A stretch of DNA of 64,000 bases from Chara braunii (lineage: Eukaryota > Plantae > Charophyceae): positions 1,874,317 through 1,938,316 of the forward strand of contig BFEA01000020.1 of NCBI GenBank assembly GCA_003427395.1, in the 5' to 3' direction. The notes beneath the pieces were generated by a model. The model did no database searches, was not told the DNA's origin, and saw only the letters and a list, made by a program, of their open reading frames with translations. Made by a program: the position numbers and the translations under genes. Shown in pieces: positions 1-64,000 of this stretch. Each line of letters starts with the position of its first letter. Position 1 is the stretch's first letter.

Positions 1-1066
1 GTGACAGGGATCCCCACGACTGCCCAGCCCCCACGAGGCCGTGGGCTCCAAAAAAAAAAAAAAATGGGGCTTTTTGGGCCCCACTTCTAGGAAACAACGA
101 GCGGAGAATCTCCGCCGCTTATCTTCGCAGATCAGCGGCAAACGACCGCCGTGCGTGTTTTCTTAAAAATTGGGGGGCCACCAGGCCCCACATTTTGATT
201 TGGCATAGTGTGGTCCGACAGACCACGGACCAGTTATCATTGGCATGACATACTGGTCCATCCTCAGCCACGAAGGAATTACTATGGAAGAGCAGTGGCC
301 CTCCTGAGGTTATATGCTTCTGCAACATCACTAAGCTCTGGGGAAAGAGTTATGGGTTTGGGTTTCGGCTCTGTCTGAGGTGCAAGCCCAAGAATGGACC
401 TAAGCTATATTTTTCTGTCAATCTAAAGAAATGCACATGGCTCCACTACATGTATCTGGACAGACTAGCAGGCGAGATACTTTCGGACTGAGGACACTGA
501 TGACCCAGCGTATTTAAAACACAAAAACAACAGAAAACGCTCTGTATTTAAAACAAAAAAGACAAACAAAAAACGCTTTGCCTGCACGAGCTGAAACCTA
601 CACCCCTAACTTTTCGGCCATCGAGCTATACTCTGGAATTCGAAAAAGGTATAAGTTTTGGCAAAGATCCACTTCTATTGCATCTCATTCAGGCTGCAGG
701 ACTCCGACGGTCGTTGGCATAGTCCAGAGTGCCTTCTGCCACTGAATTGAAGTTCGTGGGCCACGGGGGGTCGGATAAGTAATATTGCTTACTCGACCCC
801 TCGCTCTAAAAGTGACACCTCCGTGAATATCCCAATAATATCCCCACCTACCCCTGGGGCACCCCCAAAAAAAATTGAACCTTAAAAATTTTATTACGGA
901 TTTCGACAGCTCTTGAAGAGCGCAGTCAGAATCCGCCAAAAAAAAAAAAAAAAAGAGAATTAGGCTTTATTTTTTTAAAACCGGTTTCCTGGTTCACCCC
1001 CCCGGGGCTGGTTCGGCTTCGGTTCAACCGAGCAAGTTGAACCGTCCGGTTGCCGGCCCAGCCTTG
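1..1066. mobile_element. Right end of a probable non-autonomous DNA transposon (hAT/MITE-like) inserted into the Gypsy A integrase
   Basis: Integrase homology stops abruptly near 1067 (after HYGWQIR). The sequence ends ...CCCAGCCTTG (reverse complement CAAGGCTGG) with clustered subterminal AACCG/CGGTT motifs at 978-1051 and poly-A runs. The left end lies outside the window. Confidence 0.5.
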
Positions 1067-1069
1067 TAG

Positions 1070-4000
1070 GAGAGCGGATTTACGGATCTGCCAACCGTAA
1101 TGCAACCTGTTGGGTGTCATGCCGGTGGTAGAATGGACGAAGTTGTTGTACAACCCCTTAACGGAATACAGCTCTTCATCCCATGTTTCCTGATCCGGAA
1201 TAATCAAGGCGTGGAGAAGGATCTCCTCAGCCAAACCATTGGCTTCGGGGTGTCGGTCAGATGTTATGCACAACCTGATCCCTAGTTGACACGCGAAGTC
1301 CTTCCATTCAGTACTAATGAAGCGCGAATCCCTATCGCTCACAAGAGTCTTCAGGGTTCCGAACTGCAGAATGTACTTCTGTTTGAACTCACGGATCACT
1401 AATTCTGTTGGAGCGTGAGGTGGCAAAGGGATCAGATTAAGGAACTTAGAGAATCGGTCAACAATCACCATGACTTGTGAGTAGCCGTTCTTACTTACTT
1501 TCCCCATGTCAGTGAAGTCGATGGAGACGGACTCCCCGAGACCATCGGGAATGGGAAGGGGTGTGGGTAGCCCCATGGGCTTTTGTCTGCATGGTTTGAT
1601 TCGTTGCCAGACTTGACATTCAGCCACAAACTTTTCAGCAGTCCCTTTCATGCCAGGCCAATCAAACTGTCTCAGCAGATTTGCGTACGTCTTTGCCATG
1701 CCGAAGTGTTCGCTCCGGCCATGAGCCAAATCCAGAAAGTGTGTGCGGAGAGGCTCATGGTTGGGCACACATAAGCGGTTGTGGTTCCCGTAGCGATGGA
1801 AATCAGTCCTCCATACTCGTGAAAATCAGGCTGACTGCTAGGGTCAGCCCGCAACCGCTCAAGGATGGGACTAAGCTCTGGATCCTTGGTTGTGTGCTCT
1901 ACGAGCTCCTCCTTCAGTTTCTTCCGGAGGTCATAGACTTTCACAAGGCAAGTCATGTACACGGGGTGGCGAGACAAAGCATCAACTACTCGGTTATAAC
2001 AACCCTTTTTGTGCCTTAATTCGAAGTCGTAAATGTCAATTTCATGTAACCAGCAAAGCAAGGTAGGGGACAGGGCAGGTTGCTGTTTGATCCACTTCAG
2101 ACTCTCATGATCCGAGAATACTTTGAAGTGGCGTCCCAACATATAGTGTTTCCAGTGGTCCAACGCCATACGCAAAGCATAAAGCTCGCGCATGTAGGTG
2201 GAAGTGGCGACCTTTTCGCTGGGCGTGTGTTTGTTGTAGTATTCGAGCAGCCACAAGCCATCGTTGTCATCTTGCTGCAGCACTGCGCCGATTCCATACC
2301 GACTTGCATCCGTAGTAACTACGAATGTCAGTTTGGGATCTGCAATGCGGAGTACTGGGTAACTTACCAAGGCTTCTTTCAAAGCTTGAAAGGAATTCGT
2401 GCAAGTGGTGTCCCAAGAATAGGGAACATTTTTACTTGTCAATCGTGACAATGGATGAGCAACAATGGAGAAGTGGGGCACAAACTCTCGATAGTGTGAC
2501 GCGACACCAAGAAAAGAGCGCAGTTCGCGAACGTTCACGGGCTGAGGCCAATTGCATATGACCTCAACCTTGGTTGCCTCAGGTTCTAGGCCTGCAGCAG
2601 ACAACCGATGTCCAAGATAGATGACGCTATTCTTCCCAAATTCAGATTTCTCTAGGTTGAGATGAAGTTGCGTCTTCTTGAGGATAGTGAGCACTTCCTC
2701 GAGGTGCTTGAGGTGTTCCTCCATGGATTTGCTGAAGATTAGTATATCATCGAGGCATACCACCACGAACCGACCAATCTGTTCGCGGAGGACCTTGTCC
2801 ATGAGGCTTTGGAAGGTGGCCGGTGCGTTCGTGAGACCGAAGGGCATTACGGTAAACTCATAAAGCCCATTGCGTGTTTTGAACACAATCTTGTGCTGGT
2901 CCGCAAGATCAACTTCAATCTGGTGGTAGCCAGACTTGAGATCGATCTTGGAAAAGACCTTGCACCCACTTGCGGCATCAAGCAAGTCATCTATGCGGGG
3001 CAATGGATAGACGTTTTTTCTTGTGATGCGGTTTAGACCGCGATAGTTAATACATATGCGAAGCTTGCCTCCTTTCTTCGGAACAAATAAAATAGGAGCA
3101 CCAAATTCAGACTCGCTAGGCTTGATCCACCCTTTGTCAATCATTTCATCAATCTGTCGTCGGAGTTCCTCCAACTCGCCGGGTCCCATTCAGTATACGC
3201 AGCCCTTTGGAGGAACAACACCCTTGACCAACTCGATGGTGTGTCGGACCGATCGCATGGGGACTGCACGTGGCTCGACCAGAACTTCTGGGAACCGATC
3301 GAGTAGGTTTTGGATGTTTGGTGGAACCGGTGGGGGAGGAGGATCAGCAAAGGGATCACCTAGGTCAGGTCGCAAGTCGCAAATAGAGGCAACCGAATCT
3401 GAAGTAGGGTCATTTGGACTAGTAGAAGGTAGAGAAGTAGAGGTGCTAGAAGTACAATCACTAGCGGAAGTAGTAGTGGTATTAACCACAACAGTAGATG
3501 GCACATGGGTAGGACGACCAAAGGCAACATAAAATTGTTCGTCCTCTTTGTGCTTGCGACATTTCTTCCAGAACTTCATAGCATTCAAAAAAGTCACTGG
3601 GGACTCGTGCTTCTCATCCAAGAGGACGGGAATCTCGTTCCCTTGAGCATCTTTGACCATGAAAAGCGACTCCTTCCAATTGGTCCATTCGCATTGGGAC
3701 TGCAGCCAGCCCAAGCCAAGGACAGCGTCGAAGGGGCACTTGTCAAGGACATAGAAGTTCAACGCGTGGGTGACAGTTTTGTCCTTGTCAAAGGTAGTGT
3801 GCACACCTTTGACTGCATGCGTAGAAGAGACAACTTCTTTGTTGCCAACTTGGGTTCGACAAGGGTTCTTCAAGGCCACTTGCTTCATTCCCAAGCCCAC
3901 TTTGCGTATCCCATGAGGTGATATAAAGTTAGCCGTAGCACCACAGTCAATCAAGACACGGTGATAGCGGTGGTTTATGAGAAGTTTGAAGAAGATCAAC

Positions 4001-4113
4001 TTCACTGTCCCTTGGGCACGCTGCTGTTTCATCTCAGCCCAATGCTCCGAGTGGTAGTGGAAGTCGACCGTCCCAAACTCCTCCCAAGGCTCGACATACA
4101 AAACATTACACAC
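1070..4113 (-). pseudogene. pol: pol of Gypsy A: protease, RT, RNase H, integrase
   Basis: Protease LIDCGATANFI. RT motifs YPLPRIDDLLD, KIDLKSGYHQI, MPFGLTNAPATFQ and CLDD (mutated YLDD). RNase H TTDASRYGIGAVL. Integrase H..HFG..C and IVDRFSK/SDRD. In-frame TGA at 3190 and a frameshift near 1800. Confidence 0.95.
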
Positions 4114-4211
4114 TTCAGCCTTGGTTTCAGCAGATGATTGGGCTTCAAGGGAGGACTGCTGATTTGCATCGGATTCAGTCTCCCTTGCTGTAGAGTGTGC
4201 TGAAATCGACT

Positions 4212-5800
4212 CTACGCCCGGGTCTGGTTTCCCTGCAGCCTATAGCAATCCTGTACCTTATGATTCGGTTTCTGGCAATGCAGGCATACCCCCTTCTTGA
4301 GTCTACCCGGCCAATCATTCTCAGTGATCCGGAGACCGACCCACGGTTTAGTGGCCGCATCCTCCGACTTTGCTGGGATTTTGACTCCCTTGGGAAGTTG
4401 GACGTAGTTATTCCCTGCATTCCAATTCGGTCCCCTTGCATTGGCAGTCTTTTTAAAGGCATTAAATTTTTCCTCTTCTTGGTTTACATCAGATTCATGG
4501 GCTGAAGAACAGGCTGTATCAGTGTCCTGTTCTTGGTTGTCACCAAGAGTGGGGTCATCTGCATCGGCCTCCTCTTCAACCTCCAACAGGTCATGCACAA
4601 CAAAACGACTGTTGCCTTTGAACCGTCTGCCGCCCATGGGCTGTTTGCTGCCTGCTGTGGAGACGAGGTCTATCGCCTCGAGACTAACTATGTCCTTCAT
4701 CAGAGTGAACCAGTCAGTGTACCCAATGAAGTCCCTGCATAGGCGATTTGTGAAACTGGTGGGAACCGCGCCTTTGACCACATCCAAGCAAGATTGATCA
4801 GTTAGTTCTAATCCGGGTGTAGCAAACATCTTGCTGCGGTAAGTCTGGAGGCTTTTCATGGAGCCCATCCACTTGCTGCGTTTGATTTTATCAAGTTGGC
4901 TTCTTGTCCTTGCTGCAGCATGTGGATCCATATATTGCGCAATGAGGAGTTCCTCGAGGGAGGCAACCGGGGTGGCCTTAAGCCACCTTGTTAGTTCTAT
5001 TTTGGGAACCCCAGCTCGCGTAGCTTGGACTTCTAGGCAGCCCCACACAACCGGCTCGAGATTCATTCCCATAATCACGGACTGGGTCTTGGGTTGAGTC
5101 CCTAGAACTCCGAAGTATGCCCTCATGGAGCTGATCCAGGATTCAATGTCCTCTTTGCCGTCATACTTAGACAGTATTTGCACCGCCTTTCGGCCCACAT
5201 AGGGACCGGCGTAGCTGGGCCCAACACCTGCTGGTTCAGATCTTGGGGCTGCAGCAGTTGCAGATTTCCTGCCCCGTTGCTTGTCACAACAACAGCGGAA
5301 TCTGCACCTGTTGCAGGTCCCGAGGGGTTTGCCATCACACTAAAGGAAGAAGTAGAAGAAGATACGGTAAGAGGGGCAAGGTTAGTTACAATTGCAGCTC
5401 TGGAACCAGGGGGCAGAGGAAGAGGATTGGTCGCTTGGGCTTGTCGCAGTGCAACAACCTCTACTATCAAGTCACGGTACTTGTCGGTCATCTCAGTCAG
5501 ATCCTCCTGAAGTGTCCGCAATTTTGCGAAGACGTCGGCGATCTGAGTGGTATGATCTTAAAGGCTCATGACTTTGACGATAGCGGTGAGTATGGACTGC
5601 AGTTGTTCCCCACACTGCTCTTTGGTCAGCGAGGGGACAGTTTCCAAGATGGCCTCCTGACTTTTCAGCAGCAATTCCTTCCTCTCGTTCTTGTTCCCTT
5701 TTGATGGCACTATCTAGGAGTGCTTGCAGATACGGTTTCTCTGCATCCCTGGTTGCATCTAACAGGGTCTTCCATTGGACTGAGGTTAGTTGTGGATGGG
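4212..5800 (-). pseudogene. gag: gag of Gypsy A (frameshifted)
   Basis: ORFs 5123-5521 and 4212-5198. Capsid-like KYDGKEDIESWISSM and C-terminal zinc knuckle CLHCQKPNHKVQDC. The upstream limit is approximate. Confidence 0.85.
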
Positions 5801-19439: not shown

Positions 19440-20567
19440 ACTTCCTCTCTGCCTCCTCCCACAACATTGATGACCGGGTTATCGACTACGCCCATCAACG
19501 AGACACTTCTTTCACCCACTTTGGGGCACAACAAGGTGCAGAAGATAGCAGGGTGCTCAGCTTGCTTCTGCACTCGTTAATTGATTGACCCCTCAACACA
19601 CGCTTTGGCCGACACCTGAGCGTCGAATGCGATCCCACTTTCGGAACGGGTCGCATGGTTATGGGCACCACATAGTACTCCATCATTGCGACTGTTTGCG
19701 TATGCATGGCTAGTCAATATGAGGAAGCCCTACATCACCGCATTTTTATTCAAAGTCTCGCATGCGACGTATGCATGTGCATGCATTGAAATAGTTATGG
19801 GTTGAGCGGAAAAAAAAAGGGACTAGGCACGATTTGAACATGAGGTTAAAGTTTTTCTGTATCGCGTGGTTAGACTGGTTATCCTAGTCGACTGGCAAAG
19901 GATTGCGCTTGGGAGATCAGCGCCTCAAGCGTCGGTTCACGTATGGGTCTAATTCGAACGTTAACCACGCGTACCCCCTATGCTACAATGAACGAGAAAC
20001 ACCCTCTGTTGGGCCACCTCTGTGATCGCATACGAAAAACTTTCGTACGTGGTCCGGTAGCTCAACGGGGATACGCCCACTTAAGGGATGGTGATAGCTC
20101 CCACAGGTGGAGGTAAGTTGTACCTCACGTGACCCTATCCTGTCGTAGGGGTTCACAAAAGGTATGGCTGGCGCACTCGGCCGGAGCGGCACCGCTCCTT
20201 GAACGCTTTGCGTCGCAAACTGCCAAAATCCTGCGTGACGTGGTCGGGAGCGTGCGGGACCAATGCGCTCAACAACGCGCCCAACCACCCAACGCCCAAT
20301 GAGGTGTTCCCTACTTGCTGATAGGCTGAGAGGCCTGCTTCCACGTTGAGGGGAGAAGAGCCTAGAAGGCTCACTGAAGACTCTGCTGCTCGTGAGCAGG
20401 GCGTCCATAACCGTATGGTGCATGGTAACTGTCTGGCGCCCATAAGGGCTGGCAAAATTTTCAATATTTAGGCGACTTTGAGATACGTGGCCCGCCTTCA
20501 CTTAGGGCGAACACGATGCTTGCAAGGGTGCCCCCTTACAGGCATGTCAAGGACTCGTATCCTTGCA
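19440..20567 (-). repeat. LTR remnant (family C)
   Basis: About 20300-20567 matches about 47960-48208, which starts right after the chromovirus polypurine tract. About 19540-20288 matches 52351-53130 inverted. Minus-strand start is TGCAAGG. Confidence 0.7.
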
Positions 20568-47613: not shown

Positions 47614-48279
47614 TAATAAAAATAATAAATTGCAAAATCACATTGAAAGCCCAATAATCGTAAGCTGTCCAGAGAGAAGAAATGCGCTGATTTTACCCTG
47701 AACAGAGAACCAAAGCAGCGAACTCAATTGTTAATGAGAGCATTCTCTTGCCGCCACCAACAATGTACACAAATGGTTAATGGGGACCCCCATTTTCAGG
47801 CCCTGGCATGGCAAATGGTCTGAAAATTAGGGTCTCCGTTAACCTTCTCTCTCGGCCTGGTGTCCCGTGTTTCCAGTAGCTTCATGTGGGGCCAGGGTGT
47901 CTGCTCCCAGGCCCGTTCAGACAGTGGCCTGGGCCCACAGTAGTTCGGCGCGCCCAACCACCTGCTCTCTGATTGGCCGGGAGGCCAGCTTCCAAGTAAA
48001 TAGCAGAAGAGCCTAGAAGGCTCACGGAAGATTCTGATGCTCGTGAGCAGGGCGTATGCAACCAACTGGCGCGTGGTAACCCACCAGGACTGCCAAATTT
48101 TGCAATATTTAGGCCTCTTCGAGATACAGGGCCCGCCTTCACTTAGGGCAGGCACGACTCGTGCTGCGGGGACCCTTTACGGGCATGCCGAGGCCCAAAA
48201 TCCTCGCACTCCCTTGTCCTTTACTTCGATAATCCTCTGAAGTCCTTTATCAGCAGGCTGCGTTCCCTTCAGTCTTCTT

Positions 48280-48480
48280 TCATATCCGGAAATAACCTAG
48301 GGAGCAGTCTTCATCAACTCTTCTCTTGTGAACCATCGATCTTCCTTTGGATCGACATGGTGTCTGAACCGCACTCGATACTGCATCTGCAGTTTCGGCC
48401 GTTGAGCCTTGCCTGGAGGCTTGGGAACCAGCATCACCTTGTGCTTGATGATGTCATCAATGTCAACGTTGGGGGCTCTC
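48280..48480 (-). pseudogene. Integrase C-terminal chromodomain
   Basis: DIDDIIKHK...QYRVRFRHH..KEDRWFTREEL...AP fits the chromodomain pattern (EKIL..../YLVKW/D.W...L). Confidence 0.8.
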
Positions 48481-48602
48481 CTTGAAGGCAACATGTCTGT
48501 TTCAGCAAAAGGAGCAAGTTTCGACGCATGGAAAACAGGGTGTGTGTGTAGGTGTCCAGGGATACGAATGACGTATGACGCTCTGTCCGGTTCATTACCA
48601 AC

Positions 48603-49748
48603 TGTTATGCACCCGATTGAACTTCAATCCACAACGAATTCACACGTTCCCATAAACGCATGCAATTGCAGAGTAGACTAGAAGGAGGAAAATCCACACA
48701 AAACCGGAGAGAAGATATGCACAGCGGAAACTCAAAATACACAGAGAATTGAAAATGAATTTCAATTCTTCAATTCTGCAATACCTCGTCCTTCTCCGAT
48801 CAATCCAGAGTACTGTTTTCCCAAGAATCCCAACCAGGTTATCAACACCCATGGACCAATTATTTACAAGATTTCATCGAAGTATCCAGGAGTCTTCTTC
48901 TTCCTCCCTCTTTCTCAAGCTCTAGCTATGGAGCCTGCGGGCCAACCTGGTAAGCCTGCCAATCGCCACACACCCTCCTGAATCCAGCACTTCTCTCTGC
49001 ACCACTCAAGAAGCCCACTGCAGATGAAGTCTCCACTCGGCAGGGGAGCGCAGCTCCCAGGATGATGAAGAAGAACAGCAACTCGATGAAGATGATGGCC
49101 GGCCACTTCGAAGCAGGCATAGAGAAGTTGCTTCGATGGCAGCTGTCGAAACCCCAACAGGACAGCAATGGAGGAAGCACCTCGCGGAGCAGGGCCTGAT
49201 GCCCCTGGGCCAATTCCGCACGAGCGAGGTAAGCCCAGCTATGGCCATCAGCTTCCCCTTCAATGAGGAAGACGAGCGAGCACGTTGAATTAGCGCAGCT
49301 CCAGCTGCGACCTCCAGCAGCACATCGTGGAAAAAAAATGACGAAACAGAACCGAGATTCCTCGGTCCCTGCCTACTTCTGCCGGACTTCCCTAGCCTCC
49401 ACACAGAAGCTACTTTCGACCTATCTGACCGTCCAAACAGCAAACATCTACGGCCTAATAGTCAAGATCTGCCTAAATGCATCTAGGTGGAAATGTGAGG
49501 TAAGGGGACCCAAGGTTAGGACACACAAAAGGAGGACCTACGGGCCTACCAGTTTTCAGAAGGCAGAAAAGGACAAAACGACAAGGCTAAGAGACTGCTA
49601 CCGGCAGACCTAGGGATCGAGCCCAACAAGGCTCAACACAGACAAACAAACACACACAACTCCAGTCACGGGATCAAATCCCGGAGAGCGCAAAACAGGC
49701 AACAGCGAATTAGTGTACAAACCGCATCTCACTGCGCAATTCATTGCA
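48603..49748. mobile_element. Solo LTR inserted in the chromovirus integrase
   Basis: TGTTA...TTGCA termini with CAAC duplicated on both sides. Removing it restores EVLDIVGNEP. Confidence 0.85.
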
Positions 49749-50523
49749 CAACTATGTCCAGTACTTCCTAAGGTCCGAAGTACTGTGGCATTAACTTTCT
49801 TCATATACCCAGTTCCTGTCCCAGTTCAGAAGATTTGACCCATGCTCTTTCACCTACCTGAAATGCAGATGGCCGCCTGTGCCTGTTCTCAGATGCTACC
49901 ATAGCATCTTGAGCCTTTCAAATCTTTTCTACAGCCTGCTGCAGCATCTGATCATACTTGACAGCGAATTCTATGCTGCCAGGTGCTGCTGTGGGCTGGT
50001 TCTCGGGCAGCAGAAAGTCAAGAGCAGATCTGGGCTTCCAACCATGTAACTGGTTGGGAGTCATGCCGGTAGTGCTGTATACAACATTGTTGTATAGGCT
50101 GGCAATGAGAGGTAATTTCTCATCCCTCTCATCCTGGCTCGACTTGATATAGTGTCGGAGTAGGTGCTGCACTACTCAGTTCATCTGCTCTGCTGGCCCA
50201 TTTTACTCAGGGTGATTCCCTGATGTCATCTGCAGCTGGTTTCCCATTTGTTGGGCCGTGTTTTGCCACAACTCACTGATGACACTAACGTCCCTATCAC
50301 TGACAATGGACTTGGGAAGACCAAAATCACGCACCCAAATATCCATAAACAACTTATTACATGATCGGTTTTAGTGGTCTCAGGCATGGCAATTAGTCTA
50401 GCGTACTTGGTAAATCTGTCCAAGATGATGAAGATGTGCCTTTTACCACTTTTGCTGGTCACGAGGGTATCCAGGAAATCCATGGACACGCTCTGACCTG
50501 GACCAGCAGGGATACTCAAGGGT

Positions 50524-50945
50524 TGTAACGAGATGTCGTTTCACCTCCTGTCCCCAATTAATTNGGTAATCTGCCTCTTTCAATTCAAACCTAGGTGAGC
50601 ATATCCACCACCCGGTAAGAGGCACCTCAGCGTACGATCGCGCGCTATCTATTGTCTGGGGGGTTGAGCAATTCCGAAAGATGCTTCNATTTACCATAAC
50701 CAGGTTCATCTTGTAAAACAATAGTGAACTCGAACAAGCATCTTGGGTAGTTTTTGCTAGCGATCGATATCCCCTCACTTGTCCTTTTCCGACATGCTAC
50801 TGTCCTGTCGAATTCGTAGTAAGTTGAATGTCCAAGGTGCAAAATTGACCGCACATGCTCTTGCTTGCTCCATTGGCGTGCATATATCGAAGTAGCCACC
50901 CTCCTTGAACATCTCTCATAATATGTTCTACACTGTAGAAAGCTA
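50524..50945. mobile_element. LTR-like fragment inserted in the integrase
   Basis: Starts TGTAACG and splits RTQAPLGL|PLSIPAGP. There is no CA end or TSD on the other side. Confidence 0.55.
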
Positions 50946-52350
50946 TTATAAGCCCAAGTGGTGCTTGTGTCCTTGGTTTGTCGTGCTGACAAACCTGACA
51001 TGTATCTACATACTTCTTTGCATCGTCCATCATCGCGGGCCACCAAAAACACTGCACTAAGTTTGCTGACGTTTTCTTGAAACCAAAGTGATTGGCTGCG
51101 TCATGACACTCACCTAAAAATAAACTACGCAAAGACTCTCTAGACGGTACACATAGTCCTTTATTACGTGCCTTCTCAAGGGACAACAACCCTCCACCGC
51201 TACAAACTCGTCTGATGTGGCCTTATTCTTGGCCTCGAGCTTGCGAATGTTTTCAGACATCAATGGATCCTCTCGAGAGGCTTCCACCATGGATCGAGTC
51301 ACATCGTCAGATGTCTCGAACTCGGTCACTAGCGCGCCCAAATAGTCCGCCTTCCTTGACAGTGCATCCACTACCTTATTGTACTCTCCCTTGAGGTGGT
51401 CAAACTTTAAGTCATACATATCTATGACTTCAATCCACTGCTTCATGCATTGAGAGAGCAGGTTGCGTCTTGATACAGCGAAGCGTCTCATGGTCAAACT
51501 TCACGTAGAAAAATCTTCCAAGGAGTTAGTGCCTCCAGTGAGTCAACGCTTTGTAGAAGGTATATAGCTCGTGGCCGTAGGTGGACTTAGCTAACTTTTG
51601 AGACGACATCTTCTTGATCATGTACTCAATCGGCCTTAACTTTTTCCCCTCTTGCTGTGTGAGGATCGCACCAATGCTATATTGACTGACATCCACGATC
51701 ACCACGAAAGGCTTATCCAGATCGGGAGGCTTTAAGACTTCATGGTGCGTGAGAGTAAACTTTGGTCTTTTGAAGGCTGCCTCGCACTCATCTTTCCACT
51801 CCCATGAGGTGTCAAGGAGCGCGAGGTCCGTTAGTGGGGAAGCTATGGTACTATAGTTCTTTACAAACGGGCAGTAATAGCCCGCCATCACCAAGAACGA
51901 CCTCACCTCAGTCACAGACTGTGGTCTAGGCCAGTCACGTATGCTGGCCACCTTGGCTCAATCCCTCCGCAGAAATCTCATGAACCAAGTACAAGATCTT
52001 GGTGCGACCCAATTCGTATTTCTCCAAGTTGATCTTGTACTGGTGTTGGCGCAGGAGACTCGGCATGATCTCAACGTGCTTAGTGTGCTCCTCAACATTC
52101 CTACTAAAGACAAGGATATCGTCGAGGTACATGATAATAAACTTGTCTAAGTAGTCCTGAAAGATCGTGTTCCAAGAGCATTGCATAGTCCGAAAGGCAT
52201 CATCGCAAACTCGTACAGACCATACGTGGTATAGAAAGCGGTTTTGTGTTGAACCTGATGGCTAATTGCAATCTGATGGTATCCAGACCTCAGATCCATC
52301 TCTGTGAAGTACCGACATCCCTACACCCGATCCAAGAGGTCATCGATACG

Positions 52351-53130
52351 TGGTAGGGGCTCTGCGTTGTCGAGCGCATCGGTCCCGCAGTGGGGGCCCC
52401 CCGGCTGCGTCACGCCGAAATTTGCAGGACTTCGTCGTAGAGCGTTGCCGCTCCGGCCGTGAGCGCCATCCATACCTCTCGCGAACCCCTACGACAGGAT
52501 AGGGCCACGCGAGGTACAACTTACCTCCACCTGTGGAAGTTGTCACCATCCCTTAGGTGGGCGTATCCGCATCGAGTTATCGAACCACATGCAAAGGTTT
52601 TTCGTATCGCAAAGGTGGCCCGACCGAGGGCGTTTCTCGTTTGCTGCAGCATAGGGGGTACGTGCGGTTAACGCCCGAATCAGACCCGTACGCGAACTGT
52701 CGCCCGAGGTGTTGATCTCCCGAACGCGATCCTACGTCGGTCAACTAGGACGGTCAAATCTAAGCACGCGACACATCTTACGAAAACAAATATTTGAACT
52801 TCACACATAAATCGCGCCTAGTCCCTTCTTCCACACTTGACCCATAACTTTTACTAAGTGGATCAGATGAGTATCGCACGCGAGGCTCTAAATAAATATC
52901 ACGGCGATGCAGGTTTAATCATATCGACTAACCATGCATGAATACGCAAGCAGTCGCAGTGATGGCATACTATGTGGTGCCCGTAATTACATGGCCCTCT
53001 ATGGTCTCAAGGGTCACTTTCGACACTCAAGTGTCGGCTGTCACGCGCCTTGAGAGATTAATCTCTCGACGCTAGATAATTGCCAAGGCGGTTGAGAGTC
53101 CTACCCTCTTCTGCACCCGGTGGAGAGTGG
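52351..53130 (+). repeat. Truncated LTR of family C
   Basis: Inverted homology to about 19540-20288. Abuts the truncated RT. Confidence 0.75.
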
Positions 53131-53420
53131 GTGGTAGACAGGCTCTGGCCCTTTGTGGCGGTCCACGCTTATGGCCTTGGGGACGAGCTCCATCATCAAG
53201 GGTCTGGAAAGAGGTCAAGGGGCTTGGCTTTGTCGGCCTTCAACGTCCAACTATGAAAATTCTAAAAAGTAAGGATAAAAAGGGATTTTTCTTTCCTCTC
53301 ATCTTCAAACTATTTAATCACTACGCATGGTCTCAATGGGCCATGCAAACATAAGAAACATAAATATAAAAGCTATGAGATAGGAGACGATCACTCTCAC
53401 AATCACAGTGTGACTTCCTT

Positions 53421-53423
<3 letters not shown>

Positions 53424-53487
<64 letters not shown>
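53424..53487. repeat. (TA)n microsatellite
   Basis: Direct observation. Other microsatellites: (GAA)n near 18916, (CTT)n near 23140, (TG)n near 24495 and (AAT)n near 47567. Confidence 0.95.
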
Positions 53488-53489
<2 letters not shown>

Positions 53490-53699
53490 TCATAGACAAA
53501 ATTAAGTCTGGATTTCAACTCACAGAATATATCTGCAATCACATCAAAGATCCACATTGACAGAGCACATACTACACGGGGTAAACTTCAACCACTCTCT
53601 GCGCTCACACCCCTTGGCCTTATCCACACAAGCCCCACCCTTTGTCCAACCCCCCAAAATAAAAACACTTAGTCCTTTTAAATTGTCATTTAATAAAAG

Positions 53700-56600
53700 T
53701 CCGGGTTAAAAAAACAAAAAAAACAAAGAAACATTTCATTCCACAGGCGCTAAGACCTTAGGTTGAGCAGTGAGAATGAATTAGAGTTGAGTCGGAAACC
53801 GACCTGTTATCAAAGGATAACAGAAGAATGATCCTTATTAGGATTAGGCCGAACGAGTCAAGCCTTCAATCGAATACGTAGATCTGCATCATAGTACAGG
53901 TCAAAAAAGGACCAAATACTATTTAAGATAGATGGAGGACAAGCTTCACCCCGTAGCCCAACTCCTTTACTAACCTTTACCTTACCTCTCTCAAAAGTTG
54001 TTGCAAATTTCTCCTAGTAGAAAAATAATCTAACTCTACAAATTTCAGAAAATTTTGGCAACACTTCCCCCAGGAAAAGTGTCTTTTCATAATTTCTATA
54101 AACTCAAAATGACTAACTCTTTTCAAATTTGTAAAAATTTCGGCAGCGCTTCCCGTAAGAAAAGGATGCTGCCAAAATTTATACAAAGCTGAAAATACAA
54201 AGAGCAAAACACAACTACAAACTTGGGACTAACCTTTTGACACTTACGTGGTAGTCAGAACTAGCGATGGTCTGCGATGGTCTACACGATCCTTCTTTTG
54301 AAGATGGGATCGTGAGCTAACACTAGTCCTAACTCCTAGTAAGATAAAAACTAACTTATCCCAAACTTCCCTTCCCACCATCCATTCGAGTCTATTTATG
54401 GTTCCCGCACTCGGCGAGCATCCAAACAACTAAAGCTATCAAGAGATGCCTCAAACGAGTGACCCCAATCAAACATGCATAATCAACATCTTTCTCAATC
54501 CCACATTTGCTTGAGCCAAGTAGTTCGTTGGTCTCTCAATTTTTTTAACCCTCTTTTATCCCCCTTCCCTATGGCATAAGATCAGACCGCCTCAACTAAG
54601 GAGTATGCCTGATCTGCCTAAGTAAGTGAATAGGGTACGTGAATAAGGTACGCACAACTGAATTGCCCCAACTTAGGGGTATGCCCAACTTACACGACGA
54701 AAAACGTATGTCCAGACTGCCCCAACTTAGAGGTATGCACGACCCAACATAAACTATGAACGTAAAGCATATGACCAGACCGCCCCAACTTAGGGGTACA
54801 CCCGACTTCTGCTTAACTGACGACATGAAGCATGAGAGTAGACTGCCCCAACTTAGGGGCATGCCTAGTCATCCTTAAACGAAAATTACGTACGACATAG
54901 GATTAAACTGCCCCAACTTAGGGGTATGCCTCAACTGCCTAAACAAATACAAACGATGAATGGTCAGACCGCCTTAAATCCGACCTACATAACATCAACG
55001 ACAAAAGGCATATCGCTAGGCTGCCCCAACTTAGAGGTACGCCTAGTTAGCCTAAACGATTTAAGATACATAAGGCAATGTGATCAGACCGCCCCAACTT
55101 AGGGGTATGCCTAATCTACCTAAACAAAGTTAAAAACGACATATGACTAAGCCGCCCCAACTTAGGGGTACGCTTAGCCTCCGTAACAACAATTTAAACA
55201 ACCATAAATACTTTGCACAAACTTTATAAATTTCTTTTCTTCTTAGGCAGATGATCAGACCTACCCAACTTAGGGAGACATTCAACTCTGCCTTAGTCAT
55301 GTTTTTAAAATAAGGAAATTGTATACTAACTCTCTGCCTTTTTCTGTTATCACGGGCATTGAACTGAACCAACCCAACTTAGGGGTACGTTCAGTCTGTC
55401 CGGGTTACCTTCACATTCTACTCTTTATTTGTTTTCCTTCTCTTTTTATTATACCTTACTTATTGACTGGACCTCCCAACTTAGGGTGCTAGTCTGTCAG
55501 ATGCATATAATATATATATCATTTTTTACACTTTGGATTACCGTTTAAGTTCATAGCTTATGGCTAGGTCGCCCCAACTTAGGGGTACACCTAGTCTCAT
55601 GTCGTTGTCCCCCTCAGAAGAAAACACACACAGAATTGGGTCTACGCAACTTAGAATATCCCCAATCTTGCGGCAGTAACCTAAAAGAAACATCAGGAAT
55701 CTGAGCCTCGTAACTTAGGGCGCTCGTCCTCCTGTTCAGAAACCCGAAAAGAAACAAGTGAATGGACCATCCAACTTAGGATAGGCCCAGTCCTTAAAGG
55801 TCATACATTCAGCCCAACATACAAAAATAAAACATAGCACTGGATCACTCAACTTAGATTGATCCATCTTTTGGTTGACCCGGTCAAACCCAAGCAAAAC
55901 ACCTTCCTCCCACCGTCCCCCATTTATTCTATATGAATTTCACACAAATAATCTAGATTATCATACGTACTTGTTAATTTAACCTTTCAAATCAAGTCCT
56001 GAAATTAAAACAAACAAAAATAACAACTCTCTTAAACATACCTTCGATCAGATATAGGGTACTATAGTTTAGTGGATGGGATCACACGTGTAAATTGGTC
56101 ATATACCTGAATGTTCCTTGCCTCCAGAACCCCGCTTGGGCTCCAGCAGAGCTCCCGCAAATCGGTGGGCTGACCTCTCACAAGGTCTTGATGCGGATTA
56201 AGGGTTGCAATCCTGCTTGTCGCCTTCCTCTCTGAACTAGTCAGACAAGACTTAGAGTAAGAAGGGCAGAAGAAAGAATCATTCTTGAGAGGGCCTTGAA
56301 ACCTTGATACACCTCAGGGCCTTAGATCCGAGAAGGGTGCACTCAGACTCGCGTGAGAGGGCCTTGAAACCTTGATACACCTCAGGGCCCCGCAATGGCG
56401 GTCAATCGTATGAAGATAGCCGAATTTCCACTACAAAGTAGCTTAGCCAGTGCTTTGAAAGTCCCCCTAGTTGCTGCAACGACCCTTCTGAAGAGACTAA
56501 CTTCTCCGTCGATTTGTGTCGTCGTTCCCTTAGACCAATGCGCAGGAACGCAGCTTAGAAAGGTCGTGTTCAAAAAGCGCACTCCCCCTGTTTCCTGTGC

Positions 56601-56800
56601 TCTACTTTCGACTATAGTTTCGACAGTGTCACACAACTGCAACAAATCTTCTAACATATTCCCCCTCAATGGCTGCTCAAAAAAATCTCAGTCAGCCAGT
56701 CCTCGTTCAAACAAGCAGCCATACACGACCACCCATAGAATCAAGAAGAGCTCTCAATCTGTCAATCTTGCTAGACAATTCACTCCATAAACTAGGATCG
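53700..56800 (-). mobile_element. Probable 3' portion of an Athila/Tat-like LTR retrotransposon (extra ORF remnant, hairpin array, PPT, LTR start)
   Basis: Minus strand GGGATTGAGAAAGA then TGTTGAT at 54488, and an unassigned ORF at 56382-56669. No pol is present, so the lineage is inferred. Confidence 0.4.
54579..55867. repeat. Array of 17 hairpin repeats plus 1 deleted unit, consensus GCCCC-AACTTA-GGGGTA, with variable spacers
   Basis: CAACTTAG-type cores at 54593, 54669, 54723, 54786, 54849, 54914, 55027, 55095, 55158, 55266, 55375, 55477, 55575, 55647, 55711, 55772 and 55850. Confidence 0.95.
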
Positions 56801-56819
56801 GCCATGCACCACCACCCCC

Positions 56820-57087
56820 TCCTGCTACTTGACTGTCTTTCCACTGCAACCCTCAATGTCATAGCCACAGGTAAGTATCGGTTGTTCGGGCCCTCTGAAC
56901 GAGCAAGTGCCCTTGCGGCTCACACACTTAAGTCGACAAGCACTCAGATAGGCACACATACCACTATGCACGCACACACAGACTTCGGAACTCAGCAACA
57001 TACTGAAAACGCGACAAGGCATATATTCCATGAGCAGAACTCTGAAATCAGTTGTGTGTTTCAGTCCGTGTTTGGCAAGTCATCACA
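56820..57087 (-). repeat. 5' end fragment of LTR family A
   Basis: Matches about 8400-8708 and ends ...GTCATCACA. Confidence 0.75.
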
Positions 57088-59206
57088 AATGCCTTGATTC
57101 TCCTGTACACAATCCTCTGTTTTTTTTATGACAGGTATGATGGCATGCAGCACCCTCGGGGATAAGTACGGCAGCAGCAGCAAGGACACCAACAGAGCTT
57201 GATCATCGAGTTTGCACTCGGATCGTCGTGAATGAGGGAGGCGACCACCAAGAAACCAGGCACGCTCCACTCCACCACCCACCAAATGTGCAAAATGGGA
57301 ATGAATCTCTCGTTAAGGCATGGGAAGATTCGTTGTTAATGGAGTCGCTGGCTGCACCGCCTGCTACTGGCAAAAATCAAAAGGACCTTCCGCTCGAACA
57401 TGGGAATGCACATTCAACTTTCTGGCAGTGGCAATTCCTGCGTACAGTCGGAATCCAGACGAGCCGCTTTCCTCCACTCCTTGCCACCTTTTTCTCCTTA
57501 CTCTCTCTCTCTCCCTGTGCAAATACGGTAGCAAATGGCTCTGTCCCCGACGATGGTGACCCTGATGATGGCGACTACAAGCAGCATAGTCACGACCGGC
57601 ACTGCCCAGCGACCACGAGCATAATCGAGAGCGCCGCAATCTCGATCAACAACCACGAAGGTAGTACAGCGGCTTCAAGCATGGCAGGCAAGATGAATGG
57701 CTTCGTGACTGCGATTGAGATTATGAGGAACCTCAACATACGATCACCTCGTTAGTCACCAGGACTTGCAAGATGAGAATGAATCTTCCGCTAGAACATG
57801 GGCAAATACATGCTATTTTAGATTGATAATTACTCTGCTTTGGCGTGCCGCCTGACCTTCGGTTCCTCCTACGTTCCCAGTGGTAAGTATTTTCCTTTCC
57901 CTCCCCTTTCTCTTCGGCCGGTTTCTACCCCTCACCGTCCAATGCACCCCGTCGACGCCTCGACCAGGTTCATTGTATCTCGCAGTAGGAGTAAACACGA
58001 GTGCAGCCCTTTAAAAATGGTCATGGCCTTCGACAAAACCAACGACCACGAACGGGCAAGGGTCACGAATCGGATAAGAACCAGATTGATGAAGATAGTG
58101 TCGCTGCGTGAAGATGACGACCAATACTGTGATGAAATGGAGAGCGACCAAACGAATCTCGATGAGGATGTCGTAGCAGCTATGACGATGAGCACTGCCT
58201 TGATTCAGACTGCAATGACCAACACAACGATCTAGTCGACCATGCATTCATGAGCGACGACAATCATGATGGTCATTTAGAGGAATACTTGGTCGATGAG
58301 CAGTACGGGGAAGACATCATGCCGATGGTCGAAATAGCAACTCCACCCCTCCCCCGCGTGGCTCCGACTTCTTCCCCATCCGTGTGCAGCCCAAATCGTC
58401 GTACTGCGCATATCACTACTCAGCTCCTAAAAGTAACTCCGCCGTTGGATTCGCCTGACCTCGAAACCCTCACTCCGCATCTTCCTTAGCTTGAATCCAT
58501 TGAGGATCAAGTAAGATACTAGCTTTCCCGCCTCTTCCATATTTGTCTCACGGCCCCTCCCCGCACCACCGTTCCGTACTAACCCCTAATCTACTAACCT
58601 AGCACTCAAACTAACCTCACCATTACACTCGCCCACCCTTAAAACCCCCGTCTACCATCTTACTTCGCTCGATTTCATTAAGAATCGAGCAAGACATCAT
58701 TTTTCTCCTTCCCACCATAGCGAACTTCACACCGTCCTCTGCGCAGTCCTTTTCCCTACTAACTCTCACACTGCACAACTAACGCAAAAACTAACAATAC
58801 CAGCACACTTGCCCTGCTTAAAAACCTCTATTTCGCCTCTTTCCTCGCTCAATTCCATCAAGGAATGAGCGAGATACAACTTCTTCACTCCCTTTCCTCC
58901 CTTTTCTGTGCTTGTACCCTGCGTGTCATCCCGTCCACGTTCACTTACCTTTTTCACCCCCGCCAGTCCTTCGGCTCCCTCGGTTAGCGCATCTAGCAGC
59001 TCGCAGCTCCCCACAATCGTGCACCGCGTCATCCGGCAGTCCCAGCTGCCTCGAAGGAGACTTCAGAGAGAACCGGTTACTAGACAGTTCGATTCGTCTT
59101 TCGCCCCTATACCCAAGTCCGACGAACGATTTGCACGTCAATATCGCTGCGAGCCTCTTGCTCCGCGCCCTTGGCTCTGGTCGGTGCGCAAATTGCGCAC
59201 TAACCC

Positions 59207-59424
59207 AAACACCACAAAGGGTGTCGATTAATGCAGACAGCAGGATGGTGGCCACGGGAGTTGAAACCCGCTAAGGAGTGAGTAACAACCCACTTGCCAA
59301 ATCAATCAGCCCGATGCCTCATCACGTAGGAGGGCGCGGGCCTGATGCAAATCCTGGTGATAGTAGAAAATATTCAAATGAGAACTTTGAAGACCGAAGT
59401 GGAGAGGGGTTCCATGTGACCAGC
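59207..59424 (+). pseudogene. Degenerate 26S/28S rRNA fragment with internal deletions
   Basis: AGACAGCAGGA.GGTGGCCA, CCGCTAAGGAGTG.GTAACAAC and AAATATTCAAATGAGAACTTTGAAG.CCGAAGTGGAGA..GGTTCCATGTGA are conserved eukaryotic LSU rRNA blocks. Confidence 0.88.
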
Positions 59425-59702
59425 TGTGCACAGTCTGCGCCCCTGCCATTGTGCCCTTTACCATTGTGCCCTGGTCGGCTCCACCCAGGCACAGTTCGCC
59501 ATTTTTCGGGTCCCATCGGGCATGCCCCCACTCAAAACTCTCACAGCAGATCGTGGACGGTGTGCCCGCAGAGGGTCCCCGCCAGTGGGCACGCTCACAC
59601 TCAAACCTCTCATAGCAGATCGTGGGTGGCGGCCCTGGGATATCATCATTGAACTTGACCGGCGACGGGCAATCCATAACTATTTTATTTTGTTCACCTG
59701 AT

Positions 59703-59770
59703 CACGGGTGGATTCGAACTCGGGTCTGAATTTCAACAGTTGATTGGGTGTGCCAACTGAGCTAGGACTG
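59703..59770 (-). other. tRNA-derived Pol III promoter (A and B boxes), SINE-like head
   Basis: Minus strand TAGCTCAGTTGG (59764-59753) and GTTCGAATCC (59719-59710). No complete cloverleaf. Confidence 0.6.
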
Positions 59771-60101
59771 ATTTCGGTGCAGGTACCGGGCCGCGTCCCA
59801 AGGTGGGACTTAAATAAATAAAAAGTTTAAACCAAAATAAAAATAATAATAAGGAAACAGGAGGAGGGACAAGAGGGGGAGGTCCGTTGGAACCTCATCC
59901 TTGGTCCCACCAATCGGTTCCACTGACAAGGCCGCAAGCAAAAACCGAAGGGGATGGTCTCGTCAGACCCTCAACCCTACGACTTTCTTCAAAGCTGCTC
60001 CAACGCTCGCTCGTTGCCAGTCATCGTTCTCGATCCCCCTACCCTGCAGCATGAAACTCTAATGACAAACCAACAGTGCTAGGGCCCAAGGATGAGACGG
60101 A

Positions 60102-61094
60102 CTACCGCAAAATTCAATATAAATTGGTGCCGCATGACACGCGGGCCTACCAAAATACCCCAAAGCCACTCCTTGGTCTACAGTCGTACCCACGACCGCC
60201 AAGCCCCACGCCTACCGCTCGGCGGCCCCACCCGTGTTTTTACCCCATCGTTCACTCCGTTTACCATACAAAGGCCGCAGTGCTGTCAAAGTCGGCCTTC
60301 GCATAAGCACATGTGCACCACAATCACATCCACAAGGAAGATCACCTTAGTCCTAGTTTAATCGAAGTCAAAAATTTTCCGGCGGTTGCACAGACTCTGT
60401 AATGTCAAATAAAAACGAAGTATCAAGCGAGTCTGAAAACTGCGTGCCCACCAACTCTCTACTTCGAGTCAATCACTCATTCAGTGTGAACAAAATACAA
60501 CCGCGACTCGCGCGGTGTACTCAAATTTCGGACAAAACTTATTTTCTGTCACTTGCAAAAACCAGGGCGGATACCCTTCTAAGGGTATTCGCACCGACAA
60601 CGCTCTTTCTACCGCAAAATTCAATATAAATTGGTGTCGCACGGCACGCAGGCCTACCAAAATACCCCAAAGCCACTCCTTGGTCTACAGTCGTACCCAC
60701 GACCGCCAAGCCCCACGCCTACCGCTCGGCGGCCCCGCCCGTGTTTTTACCCATCGTTCACTCCGTTACCATACAAAGGTCGCAGTGTTGTCAAAGCCGG
60801 CCTTTGCATAAGCGCACGCGCACCACGATTACATCCACAAGGAAGATCACCTTAGTTCTAGTTTAATCAAAGTCAAAAATTTTCTGGCGGTTGCGCAGGC
60901 TCTGTCATGTCAAATAAAAACGAAGTATCAAGCGAGCTTGAAAACTGCGCGCCCATGCACTCTCTATTTCAGTGTGAACAAAACACAACCGCGACTCGCG
61001 CAGTGTACTCAAATTTCGAACAAAACTTATTTTCTATCACTTGCAAAAACCAGCGCGGATACCCTTGTAAGGGTATTCACACCGACAACGCTCT
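60102..61094. repeat. Tandem duplication, period 507 bp
   Basis: CTACCGCAAAATTCAATATAAATTGGTG at 60102 and 60609, with colinear similarity throughout. Confidence 0.92.
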
Positions 61095-64000
61095 TAACGG
61101 TAATGGCATTTAGTCCCCTATAGACAGTGCACATCCTAAGGGTACCCCATTTCTTGGGAACAAACAATACATGTGCACGTAGGGGAACATACTAGGTTGA
61201 ATCCAACCCTTCTCTGTGAGGTCCTTTATTTGTCGGCGAGGCTCATCTAACTCCACAAAACATCTTGTAAATCCATCCTCTAGGCACTGTTGTCACTTGG
61301 GGATCCTCGGGGCCTAAGCCGGGGTTGGGGTTTGACCCTTCGGACCCCCGGCCAGGGGATCCCCAACCCCCGGACCCCTGGCCCGGGGATCCCTGAGCTG
61401 CCCCCCTCCAAATCACCCCCGCGGCCCCTCCCCTGCCCCNNNNNNNNNNNNNNNNNNNNNNNNNNNNNNNNNNNNNNNNNNNNNNNNNNNNNNNNNNNNN
61501 NNNNNNNNNNNNNNNNNNNNNNNNNNNNNNNNNNNNNNNNNNNNNNNNNNNNNNNNNNNNNNNNNNNNNNNNNNNNNNNNNNNNNNNNNNNNNNNNNNNN
61601 NNNNNNNNNNNNNNNNNNNNNNNNNNNNNNNNNNNNNNNNNNNNNNNNNNNNNNNNNNNNNNNNNNNNNNNNNNNNNNNNNNNNNNNNNNNNNNNNNNNN
61701 NNNNNNNNNNNNNNNNNNNNNNNNNNNNNNNNNNNNNNNNNNNNNNNNNNNNNNNNNNNNNNNNNNNNNNNNNNNNNNNNNNNNNNNNNNNNNNNNNNNN
61801 NNNNNNNNNNNNNNNNNNNNNNNNNNNNNNNNNNNNNNNNNNNNNNNNNNNNNNNNNNNNNNNNNNNNNNNNNNNNNNNNNNNNNNNNNNNNNNNNNNNN
61901 NNNNNNNNNNNNNNNNNNNNNNNNNNNNNNNNNNNNNNNNNNNNNNNNNNNNNNNNNNNNNNNNNNNNNNNNNNNNNNNNNNNNNNNNNNNNNNNNNNNN
62001 NNNNNNNNNNNNNNNNNNNNNNNNNNNNNNNNNNNNNGCCACCCTTGCATACACGCCCTCGGCCATCCCCACCCCCAGCCATCCCCGCCCCCGCACCAGC
62101 GGTGGGTGTGGCCACGGTGTCAGGCGGCCACAAGCAGTGTGCCGCCTGAAAGCTGGGGTTTTGGATCTTAGGTTCAAAGACAAGTCCGTGTTTTGACGGT
62201 ACTCCGGGTAGACCAGGCAACAAAATTAGGGGGGCTCAACGCACCCCTAATTTTGGGCACGCTGAACTTTTCAAGCAACCCTCAAAGACGACGGGATGAG
62301 TGACCGCACTAGGCGCGAGCTGGGCTGAAATGAAGCCTGAAACATTTAGTTAAAAATTAGTATCCAAATTAAAAATGGGAGAAAGAATTAAAGATAAAAG
62401 AAAAGAAGAGAAAAGTGAAATACTCATTGATTTATTTAAAATCTTCGATGATTAACTTTTGATATGAACACCCTAAATTATTGATTTTTCTGACAATAAA
62501 AATAGGAAAAGATGGGAGGAAAGCCGAGATTGTTAGCTGANTGGCGTAGTCTGGNTCCAAGTATCCGCGATCGGAATTACCCCGGATTAATCATTTATTC
62601 AAACTCTCATGATTCTAGCTATACTGTGATGATTGGGATTTGTACCCATGGCTTGCCTAAATCTCCCTAACTCCCCGTAACTAGCGTACTATAAGTGCAG
62701 GATGGACGGATGTGGGGCGTTACCGCTATGTTGTTCATGTGGATCGGGAGGCTCGATACTATTACGGGGTTCAGACATTGTATGGTATTTGGCGCATTTC
62801 ATGCACGGTATTGCCCCGACATCAATGTGGCACACGCCTGGGAGCCATCCTTTGGTTCCGTTTGGACGCGACAGTCTGGTTCGGGCAGGTTCGGAACTAT
62901 TACGGCGCCGTGGCATTCTTCGATATTCGACATGTTACAGGTTTGGAATTGGGTCAGCATCGACATGGTAAGATATTCTCAGGTTCGGTCCTGTTTCGGC
63001 ATTGGCATGGTACGGCTGTTTTTTTTTTCCTTTTCTTTCTCCCGGCCTGGCACTCCAGGCGGGTTTGAGGCTGCTGCAGTTCAAGCTGAGACGAAACAGC
63101 CACCCGAGCAGCATTGGAACAGGCTCCTATGAGTCGAAGGTATCCCTTGGCATGACGGAGTATGGGGCTCGGATCCACATCAAGGTTGGTGTGGTTCATT
63201 TGTTTGGGGCACAGTGTTGATCCCAACGGTACGATCACTGGGGCAGCACTGGTATGGCCACTGAGACCGAAACCTATGATGGCCGGTTGGGGTCGGTACA
63301 GCACATGGGGCTGCTTGAAGAGGGTTCTGATCTGATTCGGGGCTGCTGCGGGTCATAAAATTATGGTTTGGTCAGTGTGATATTATGACCAAAACTGCTA
63401 TGACTCGGCGCGGGCCACTGTGAATCAGACTTGCTACTTCGGAACGGTGACTGGTTCGGCGGTGACGCAGCTACGGTGGTTGATTCGGGAAGTGGTCTAA
63501 CAGACCCTAGCATTGTGACTCGAAGACCCAGGGCTGCTCACACTATTACCGGGACCACTTGCTTTGATATCTCATGGACAGACTTATGCCACCCTTGGCA
63601 CCAACCAGGGGAAAAATAGGACCTGGCTCGAAGGGCCTGGTAAGGATGGCACCGAGAGTACCGGACTTTTTTTTCTTTTTTTTAAGAAAAAGGGACCGAA
63701 GGACGCTGCGGAGATTGAGCTGTGAACGGCCAGCACCATTGGGGGATATAGTCTGGTCCAGCCGAGTGCAGGGGGGAGGTTTTTTTTTTGGGGGGGGAAC
63801 AGCGTGCTAGGCGTACACAGCCCACCACCGGACCGACTGGTGGGCGAGAGAGGGGAACACTTGTGCGCTGGAACGGACGGTGTGCCGGGCGTACCAAGCC
63901 CCCACCGGCACTCTGCGGAGCGCTGTGACTAGCTTGGGGCAAGGAAGAGGAGTGCTGGAGCAGTGCACAAGGGATGGTGTGTGTGACTGAAGGAGGGACC

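Follow-up and report, generated by a model that had tools for sequence, protein, structure and literature searches.

The tandem arrays in the 3′ regions of Ogre/Retand retrotransposons are of unknown origin and function, as stated in the accessible text of two papers (PMC11963269, PMC3305785), and the accessible text of the latter says the same of the minisatellites of soybean GmOgre (PMC3305785). Repeated motifs of another kind are the polypurine tracts (PPTs): ttgggg is the core of the Athila/FIDEL PPT as printed in the available part of PMC2844528, Athila and Calypso have an extra upstream PPT, and Sireviruses have multiple PPTs, according to the portions of the sources that are available (PMC2844528, PMC2829016). 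ATHILAfinder, in its available description, handles only LTR junction motifs (10.64898/2026.03.20.713144). Structured RNA export elements have been proven in the LTR retrotransposon MusD (the MTE) and in MLV, whose element consists of seven stem-loops over about 1400 nt (accessible part of PMC5767303). In the genome of Chara braunii, Gypsy elements predominate (accessible part of 10.1101/835561); the available text of a further paper reports non-chromoviruses to be absent from algae and describes an NCGN insertion preference for the non-chromovirus Phygy elements of the moss Physcomitrella (PMC6317226).

The window analysed here, 64,000 nucleotides of Chara braunii contig BFEA01000020.1 within which all positions below are counted, is a nest of transposable elements, with Ty3/gypsy gag-pol regions at 926-5339 and 48250-52350, LINE-type reverse transcriptases (RTs), microsatellites and gaps. 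The proteins closest to its first RT are CBR_g proteins of Chara braunii, with identities of up to 87%. The nest also contains fragments of eukaryotic LSU rRNA in opposite orientations (59073-59512), a minus-strand tract with tRNA-like A and B boxes that looks SINE-like by eye and in which ARAGORN calls no tRNA (59700-59770), and a unit of about 490 bp, from the break of a split RT gene, that is tandemly duplicated with 89.5% identity (60102-61095).

Structure and setting of the hairpin array

Seventeen hairpins and one unit without a core were delimited on the minus strand at 54580-55871 by alignment, folding and a covariance model. Read on that strand, a typical unit has an 8-bp outer stem, a 3x2 internal loop, a 4-bp inner stem and the loop UAAGUU closed by a C-G pair. 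A weaker third basal stem is present in some units; as a constant element it was dropped, since its fixed register is only 60% paired and it is absent from the RNAalifold consensus. The cores start, in plus-strand coordinates, at 54593, 54669, 54723, 54786, 54849, 54914, 55027, 55095, 55158, 55266, 55375, 55477, 55575, 55647, 55711, 55772 and 55850, and 15 of the 17 are exact copies of CAACTTAG. The whole 64-kb window has 16 exact occurrences of this sequence, of which one lies outside the array, where 1.98 would be expected (0 of 100 shuffles). Core spacings are 54-78 nt, with a block of 98-109 nt and with 113 nt across the core-less unit; the number of cores, the core-deleted unit and the spacings given in the preliminary description are all confirmed by the sequence and the covariance model, and the outer arms listed there are present. 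The model, which the 17 units fit by construction, being built from them, recovers exactly those 17 in the window and nothing else below E 1. A TRF run on the window did not report the array, and an Rfam scan placed no family on it.

The units at 54580-55287 (minus strand) form a regular block of tandem repeats of about 63 nt with homologous U-rich spacers, and are younger duplications. The core-less unit, at about 54945-54995 on the same strand, has kept its flanks and outer arms. The distal hairpins (55362-55871, minus strand) are individually diverged and have unrelated spacers and varying internal loops, with the loop itself retained. On the minus strand, twelve units share one geometry and can be aligned gap-free; folding these with RNAalifold, a check that the preliminary description had proposed, recovers the inner ten of the twelve pairs unaided. 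The five units with other internal loops (55477, 55647, 55711, 55772 and 55850) were left out of the pairing statistics given below, which refer to the 12 of equal geometry; all of them but 55711 form local minus-strand hairpins. A global fold predicts that four proximal units pair mutually, not locally. Three units at first described as weak in their outer stems (54669, 54786 and 54723) do form 7, 7 and 6 of their 8 outer pairs on the minus strand by way of G-U, but are still thermodynamically weak (z -0.6, -0.2 and +0.4, respectively).

The regular repeat-spacer appearance had invited comparison with CRISPR, or with a processing array cut at each hairpin to release the spacers as small guide RNAs, and the CCCC-AACTTA-GGGG hairpin recurs in a bacterial CRISPR repeat that is unrelated. 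The CRISPR reading fails because the spacers in the regular block share homology; they are moreover of low complexity, with one 13-nt match only elsewhere in the window, and the stems vary between repeats. As for the release of small RNAs, the stems are of about 12 bp, and no pile-ups of read starts or ends occur in the polyA libraries at their low depth. We regard an array of this type as highly improbable.

Following the minus strand, the array leads into a non-coding stretch of about 960 nt (53622-54579) and then into a polypurine run, AAGGCCAAGGGG, which stands directly before the LTR and by its sequence would serve as PPT (53610-53621). The 3′ LTR itself, 1242 bp long (52368-53609, minus strand), has inverted termini of the TG...CA type, TGTGAGCGCA at 53609 and TGCGCTCGACA at 52368, and its last 620 bp or so are of very high copy. 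Next to it is the target flank ACGC (52364-52367, minus strand), of the NCGN type, at which an interrupted chromovirus RT frame resumes (NAEPLPRIDD). A second, partial LTR copy, 74% identical, lies on the plus strand at 19659-20274; it ends in CAACA and is then followed by host-derived ACGC. That both LTR ends abut ACGC suggests a CG-centred (NCGN) insertion preference, two sites being a small sample. A reading of the 52364 junction as the TIR of a DNA transposon was discarded, since ACGC is host sequence in both LTR copies. At 61085-61253, where the split RT has its other half, the RT sequence ends in GCGT and an unrelated TGTCG start follows; GCGT differs from ACGC in two of four letters. 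A third LTR-like end, at 61085-61088, abuts GCGT, the complement of ACGC.

Upstream of the array is an ORF-like segment of high copy (56100-56523, minus strand) that carries stops and frameshifts, so that the array does sit between an ORF-like segment and a PPT/LTR, as had been described, the former being decayed. Protein searches with this segment yielded no homologue, three spurious repeat proteins and Atlas hits below 0.9. One minus-strand frame is free of stops in the loose-end cells at 56160 of three runs, and 3 of the 6 differences there are synonymous in it, a weak hint obtained by eye. The element can be traced only to about 56523, with other elements beyond, and its 3′ interior amounts to at least 2.9 kb and its non-coding 3′ region to at least 2.5 kb. 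No second full LTR was found upstream in the window, the gag-pol and 5′ LTR of the array element are absent from the 64 kb, and none of 123 proteins compared aligns to 52600-60900. The stretch 56108-56655 was rejected as a 5′ LTR of the array element, because it and the LTR at 52368-53609 do not match and because 56524-56697 is close to single copy.

Other signals were seen in the same region. On the minus strand at 56095-56110, at the end of the ORF-like segment and just upstream of the array, stands a splice-donor-like CAG|GTATAT; if this donor is used, the array would lie in an intron and be retained only on unspliced RNA. On the plus strand, several branch-point-like CTAAC/TACTAAC motifs, each followed by pyrimidine tracts and AG, were noted by eye at 53960-54150 and 55320-55350, and these antisense motifs could be the mark of an antisense spliced transcript as in Tat/Retand. 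Two related long hairpins of about 90 nt occupy 54022-54110 and 54106-54196; in the genomic run X1, depth in the bin 54022-54196 is 73,580, far above the values of about 650-5,400 in neighbouring bins, and the hairpin motif is therefore common to other families.

The array belongs to a dispersed multi-copy LTR retrotransposon family. In X1, dozens of distinct diverged contigs cover each array position (38-40 at 55448-55457, 59 at 55915), and depth runs into the hundreds or thousands where a single contig has about 8, depth not being a copy number. Contigs bridge the array upstream to 56232 and downstream to 54281, with an overlapping contig reaching 54136; the link between array and downstream region in other copies is provided by contigs 54281-54683 and 54136-54518. 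Among the 16 listed of about 39,000 contig pieces none bridges the array to the LTR, and the array-LTR link comes from this window. The degradation of units that had been described is partly private to this copy, as most contigs at 55710-55711 and 54602 restore the core or the inner pairing (294/359, 313/359 and 196/205 of X1 depth); this variant evidence comes from 40 of about 1580 rows, and loop invariance was read within this copy. The ATCC/GGAT inner pair noted earlier at 55769 is indeed present in this copy, but X1 depth there reads G (2805/2915), in reads that possibly derive from other units, and ATCC/GGAT may not be a family feature.

Loop conservation and stem pairing

Of the 136 positions that the 8-nt cores of the 17 units comprise, 134 are identical; in the outer stems, 60 of 192 positions differ from the column majority. 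A comparison with shuffled sequences, proposed in the preliminary description, gave a divided result. Pairing is found in 89.6% of 144 pair cells against 85.3% in the shuffles (1/500), and 13 cells are changed on both sides against 6.2 (0/500); pairs with double change (103/500) and further pair types (334/500), on the other hand, do not exceed the shuffles. Slid registers give 26-55% pairing. The left and right arms of the same unit pair better than swapped arms (p 0.003-0.004), and over all 17 units, in free register, this own-arm advantage has p 0.0004.

In the 12 regular units, which are related, the outer-stem covariation is entirely of the transition type, a pattern that ordinary deamination can mimic. 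Neutral decay was therefore simulated with and without CG/CHG hypermutation (CG x10 / CHG x5 deamination), taking three real units as ancestors, star and Yule trees and matched stem divergence, in 12 scenarios of 300 runs each. The observed array has 67 of 72 central cells paired, compared to simulation means of 45-51, and this value was reached in 0/3600 runs; a core with one change at most was also reached in 0/3600, the means being 24-31 changes. Seen as a neutral minisatellite, the array would have arisen from one palindromic unit and be decaying, its covariation a product of transitions and methylation-driven deamination. The transition-type covariation fits this explanation, as does the fact that tandem arrays whose function is stated to be unknown are common at the same position in Ogre and Retand, going by the available text. 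It does not fit that none of the simulations matches the pairing or the core conservation, nor that a nearly unchanged core stands among highly diverged spacers. We consider neutral decay very improbable, and it is already largely refuted. The initial proposal of a selected repeated structure, as opposed to neutral satellite decay, is thus supported by pairing, by core conservation and by the simulations of tandem-repeat decay. There is good support for selection, both on the sequence of the loop and on the pairing of the stems, and the array is real, selected and structurally clear.

Folding strand and proposed role

Several observations bear on the strand that folds. On the minus strand the central six pairs include 19 G-U against 2 A-C and the two basal pairs 5 G-U against 4 A-C; by distinct pair types the count is only 10 G-U against 5 A-C (p 0.30). 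Per-unit energies favour the minus strand in only 11 of 17 units (p 0.088), and the two strands have similar shuffle z-scores (-2.3 and -2.6). G and U are abundant on the minus strand, where the expected G-U share is 0.65; relative to this the G-U excess has p 0.008 over all columns and 0.08 without the shared G-U column; it was reached in up to 42 of 300 simulations when the ancestor already had G-U pairs. Across the family, substitutions are symmetric between the strands, with 225 C>T and 199 G>A, and 178 A>G and 209 T>C. All reads of RNA run X5 over 54610-56001 share the first-mate orientation that dominates over the minus-strand RT gene, with an array depth of only 0-3 and with reads that derive from other copies; run X6 has both orientations. 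The preliminary description had left the choice between RNA and ssDNA. As the folding molecule, sense RNA from the minus strand is preferred to plus-strand ssDNA, though not decisively, and computationally there is a conserved structure on the sense genomic RNA, for which the strand support is moderate.

These observations also bear on the possibility of a DNA-level site, at which an element-encoded anti-silencing or chromatin protein would bind the 8-mer in dsDNA or in ssDNA extruded as hairpins. In its favour, the copies of the core are clustered and hardly vary, and Retand antisense proteins, predicted to bind DNA, are encoded beside such arrays according to the accessible text of PMC11963269. 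Binding to dsDNA, however, would not preserve the complementarity of the arms amid sequence change, nor would it favour G-U over A-C on one strand, and we hold such a site to be improbable.

On balance, we lean towards a cis-acting multivalent RNA docking array that routes the genomic RNA to export and packaging. Since the array lies upstream of the PPT and LTR, it is present on the full-length RNA. From the fixed loop, the variable stems constrained by pairing, the 17 repeats and the loose spacers we infer the signature of a multivalent protein site; repeated protein-binding hairpins are familiar from MS2 operators and CsrB. The array would act on the full-length sense RNA of the element as a repeated site for one RNA-binding protein, for which the fixed C-UAAGUU-G tip on its variable stem would be the recognition site, the loop being read as sequence and the stem as shape. 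The partner may be a protein of the element itself, either Gag or whatever the extra ORF upstream encodes, or may be a host export factor, and once bound it would route the full-length RNA to nuclear export and packaging. The array may have grown by reverse-transcription slippage or unequal recombination, and more sites would give higher avidity. It counts against docking for packaging that known packaging signals are mostly at the 5′ end. As a structure, the array is well supported.

The fixed loop, the variable stems and the many copies also fit an RNA decoy or shield. As a decoy, the array would titrate a host protein that binds RNA or acts in silencing, in analogy to bacterial CsrB with its repeated loops; as a shield, it would guard the long 3′ UTR against decay, which very long 3′ UTRs do invite. 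Nevertheless, family transcripts are scarce in the polyA libraries examined, too few for a sponge acting in trans, and we know of no host partner for a decoy; this explanation seems to us unlikely.

Quite unlikely, in our estimation, are extra PPT-like or reverse-transcription signals, with a role in plus-strand priming, pausing or strand transfer. It is true that the minus-strand units contain TTGGGG, the printed core of an Athila-like PPT (available part of PMC2844528), and that in Sireviruses, as far as the accessible text goes, several copies of the PPT lie close together by the 3′ LTR, with the final copy on a stem-loop (PMC2829016). Yet the conserved part of the units is a pyrimidine-containing loop, the G run is buried in the stem, and the terminal PPT of the array element has a different sequence. 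This reading is weakened because the distal units 55647, 55772 and 55850 have lost the G run and retain the loop.

With its invariant loop, swappable stems and candidate folding strand, the array is a sharp, testable case. If the docking array is what we take it to be, it would show how a retrotransposon of the plant lineage marks its own genomic RNA, and such a natural array, together with its protein, would be a candidate for an MS2-like RNA tag.

Comparison with known systems

Searches of open-access full text found this array described nowhere, nor covarying hairpins with the same loop in such arrays, nor the motif in the context of a retrotransposon, nor any Athila element in Chara; none of four spellings of the motif occurs in four supplement files on Retand. 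A pattern scan for relatives gave 0 matches in viral contigs and 0 in genome contigs. Twelve metagenome loci were set aside as unrelated on inspection, being bacterial CRISPR or other repeats that share only the inner hairpin; their covariance scores are at most 22 bits against 25-48 for true units. The bacterial CRISPR repeat with the CCCC-AACTTA-GGGG hairpin has unrelated flanks and is a case of coincidence or convergence. With CRISPR arrays in general, the Chara array shares the repeat-spacer rhythm of about 63 nt and a palindromic repeat, and it differs in its variable stems, homologous spacers and eukaryotic retrotransposon context. Among the 40 of 78 ORFs of at least 150 aa that were scanned there are no cas-type domains; the domains found are of the retroelement type, plus one weak match to a replication factor.

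The likeness to the PPTs of Athila and Sireviruses, as the available text presents them, lies in a repeated G-rich motif upstream of the 3′ LTR, TTGGGG being present in most Chara units. Unlike those PPTs, Chara has 17 copies placed inside hairpins, the conserved part is a loop and not a purine run, and the terminal PPT differs. Besides the array units, TTGGGG is found at one place some 40 nt upstream of the PPT; the terminal tract, AAGGCCAAGGGG, does not have the ttgggg core of the Athila terminal PPT. The minus-strand unit resembles CTAAG(C/T)TTGGGG motifs that may be repeated in Athila-type 3′ regions. A wider conjecture, doubtful though worth stating, is that the supposedly functionless 3′ tandem repeats of plant Ty3/gypsy elements are in part multivalent RNA docking arrays, and that the Chara array represents an ancestral C-UAAG(Y)UU-G hairpin signal surviving as the TTGGGG of land-plant Athila, within a streptophyte-wide system like Rev/RRE or psi that would consist of identical loops in repeated copies.

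In the moss Phygy elements, as described in the accessible part of PMC6317226, the interior is short and coding over nearly its whole length, unlike the Chara element with at least 2.5 kb of non-coding 3′ region; the resemblance is in the insertion sites, 2 of 2 LTR ends of the array element's family abutting host-derived ACGC, in a small sample. The MusD MTE, MLV PTE and HIV RRE, in the available text of PMC5767303, are structured cis-acting parts of genomic RNA with multiple stem-loops and multivalent protein assembly, features that the Chara array shares or, for its function, would share. They are, however, single complex folds and not 17 hairpins with the same loop, and there is no similarity in sequence or Rfam family.

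Of the traits of the OTA non-chromoviruses (Athila, Tat and Ogre), the array element has the array, an LTR of 1242 bp (>1.2 kb) and a 3′ interior of at least 2.9 kb, while the putative extra ORF, for which the protein searches gave no homologue, has decayed; comparison with Ogre/Retand is limited in that the array element has no RT in the window for classification. Arrays at the 3′ end are an already known kind, and selection on hairpins was not found in print in open-access text: the available text presents the Ogre/Retand arrays simply as tandem repeats and mentions neither a conserved loop nor covarying stems, unlike what is seen in Chara. In the other respects given there the two are alike, as both lie between the coding region and the 3′ LTR within a long internal non-coding region, both have family-specific sequence and a function stated as unknown, and the size of the Chara unit falls within the reported 8-100 bp.
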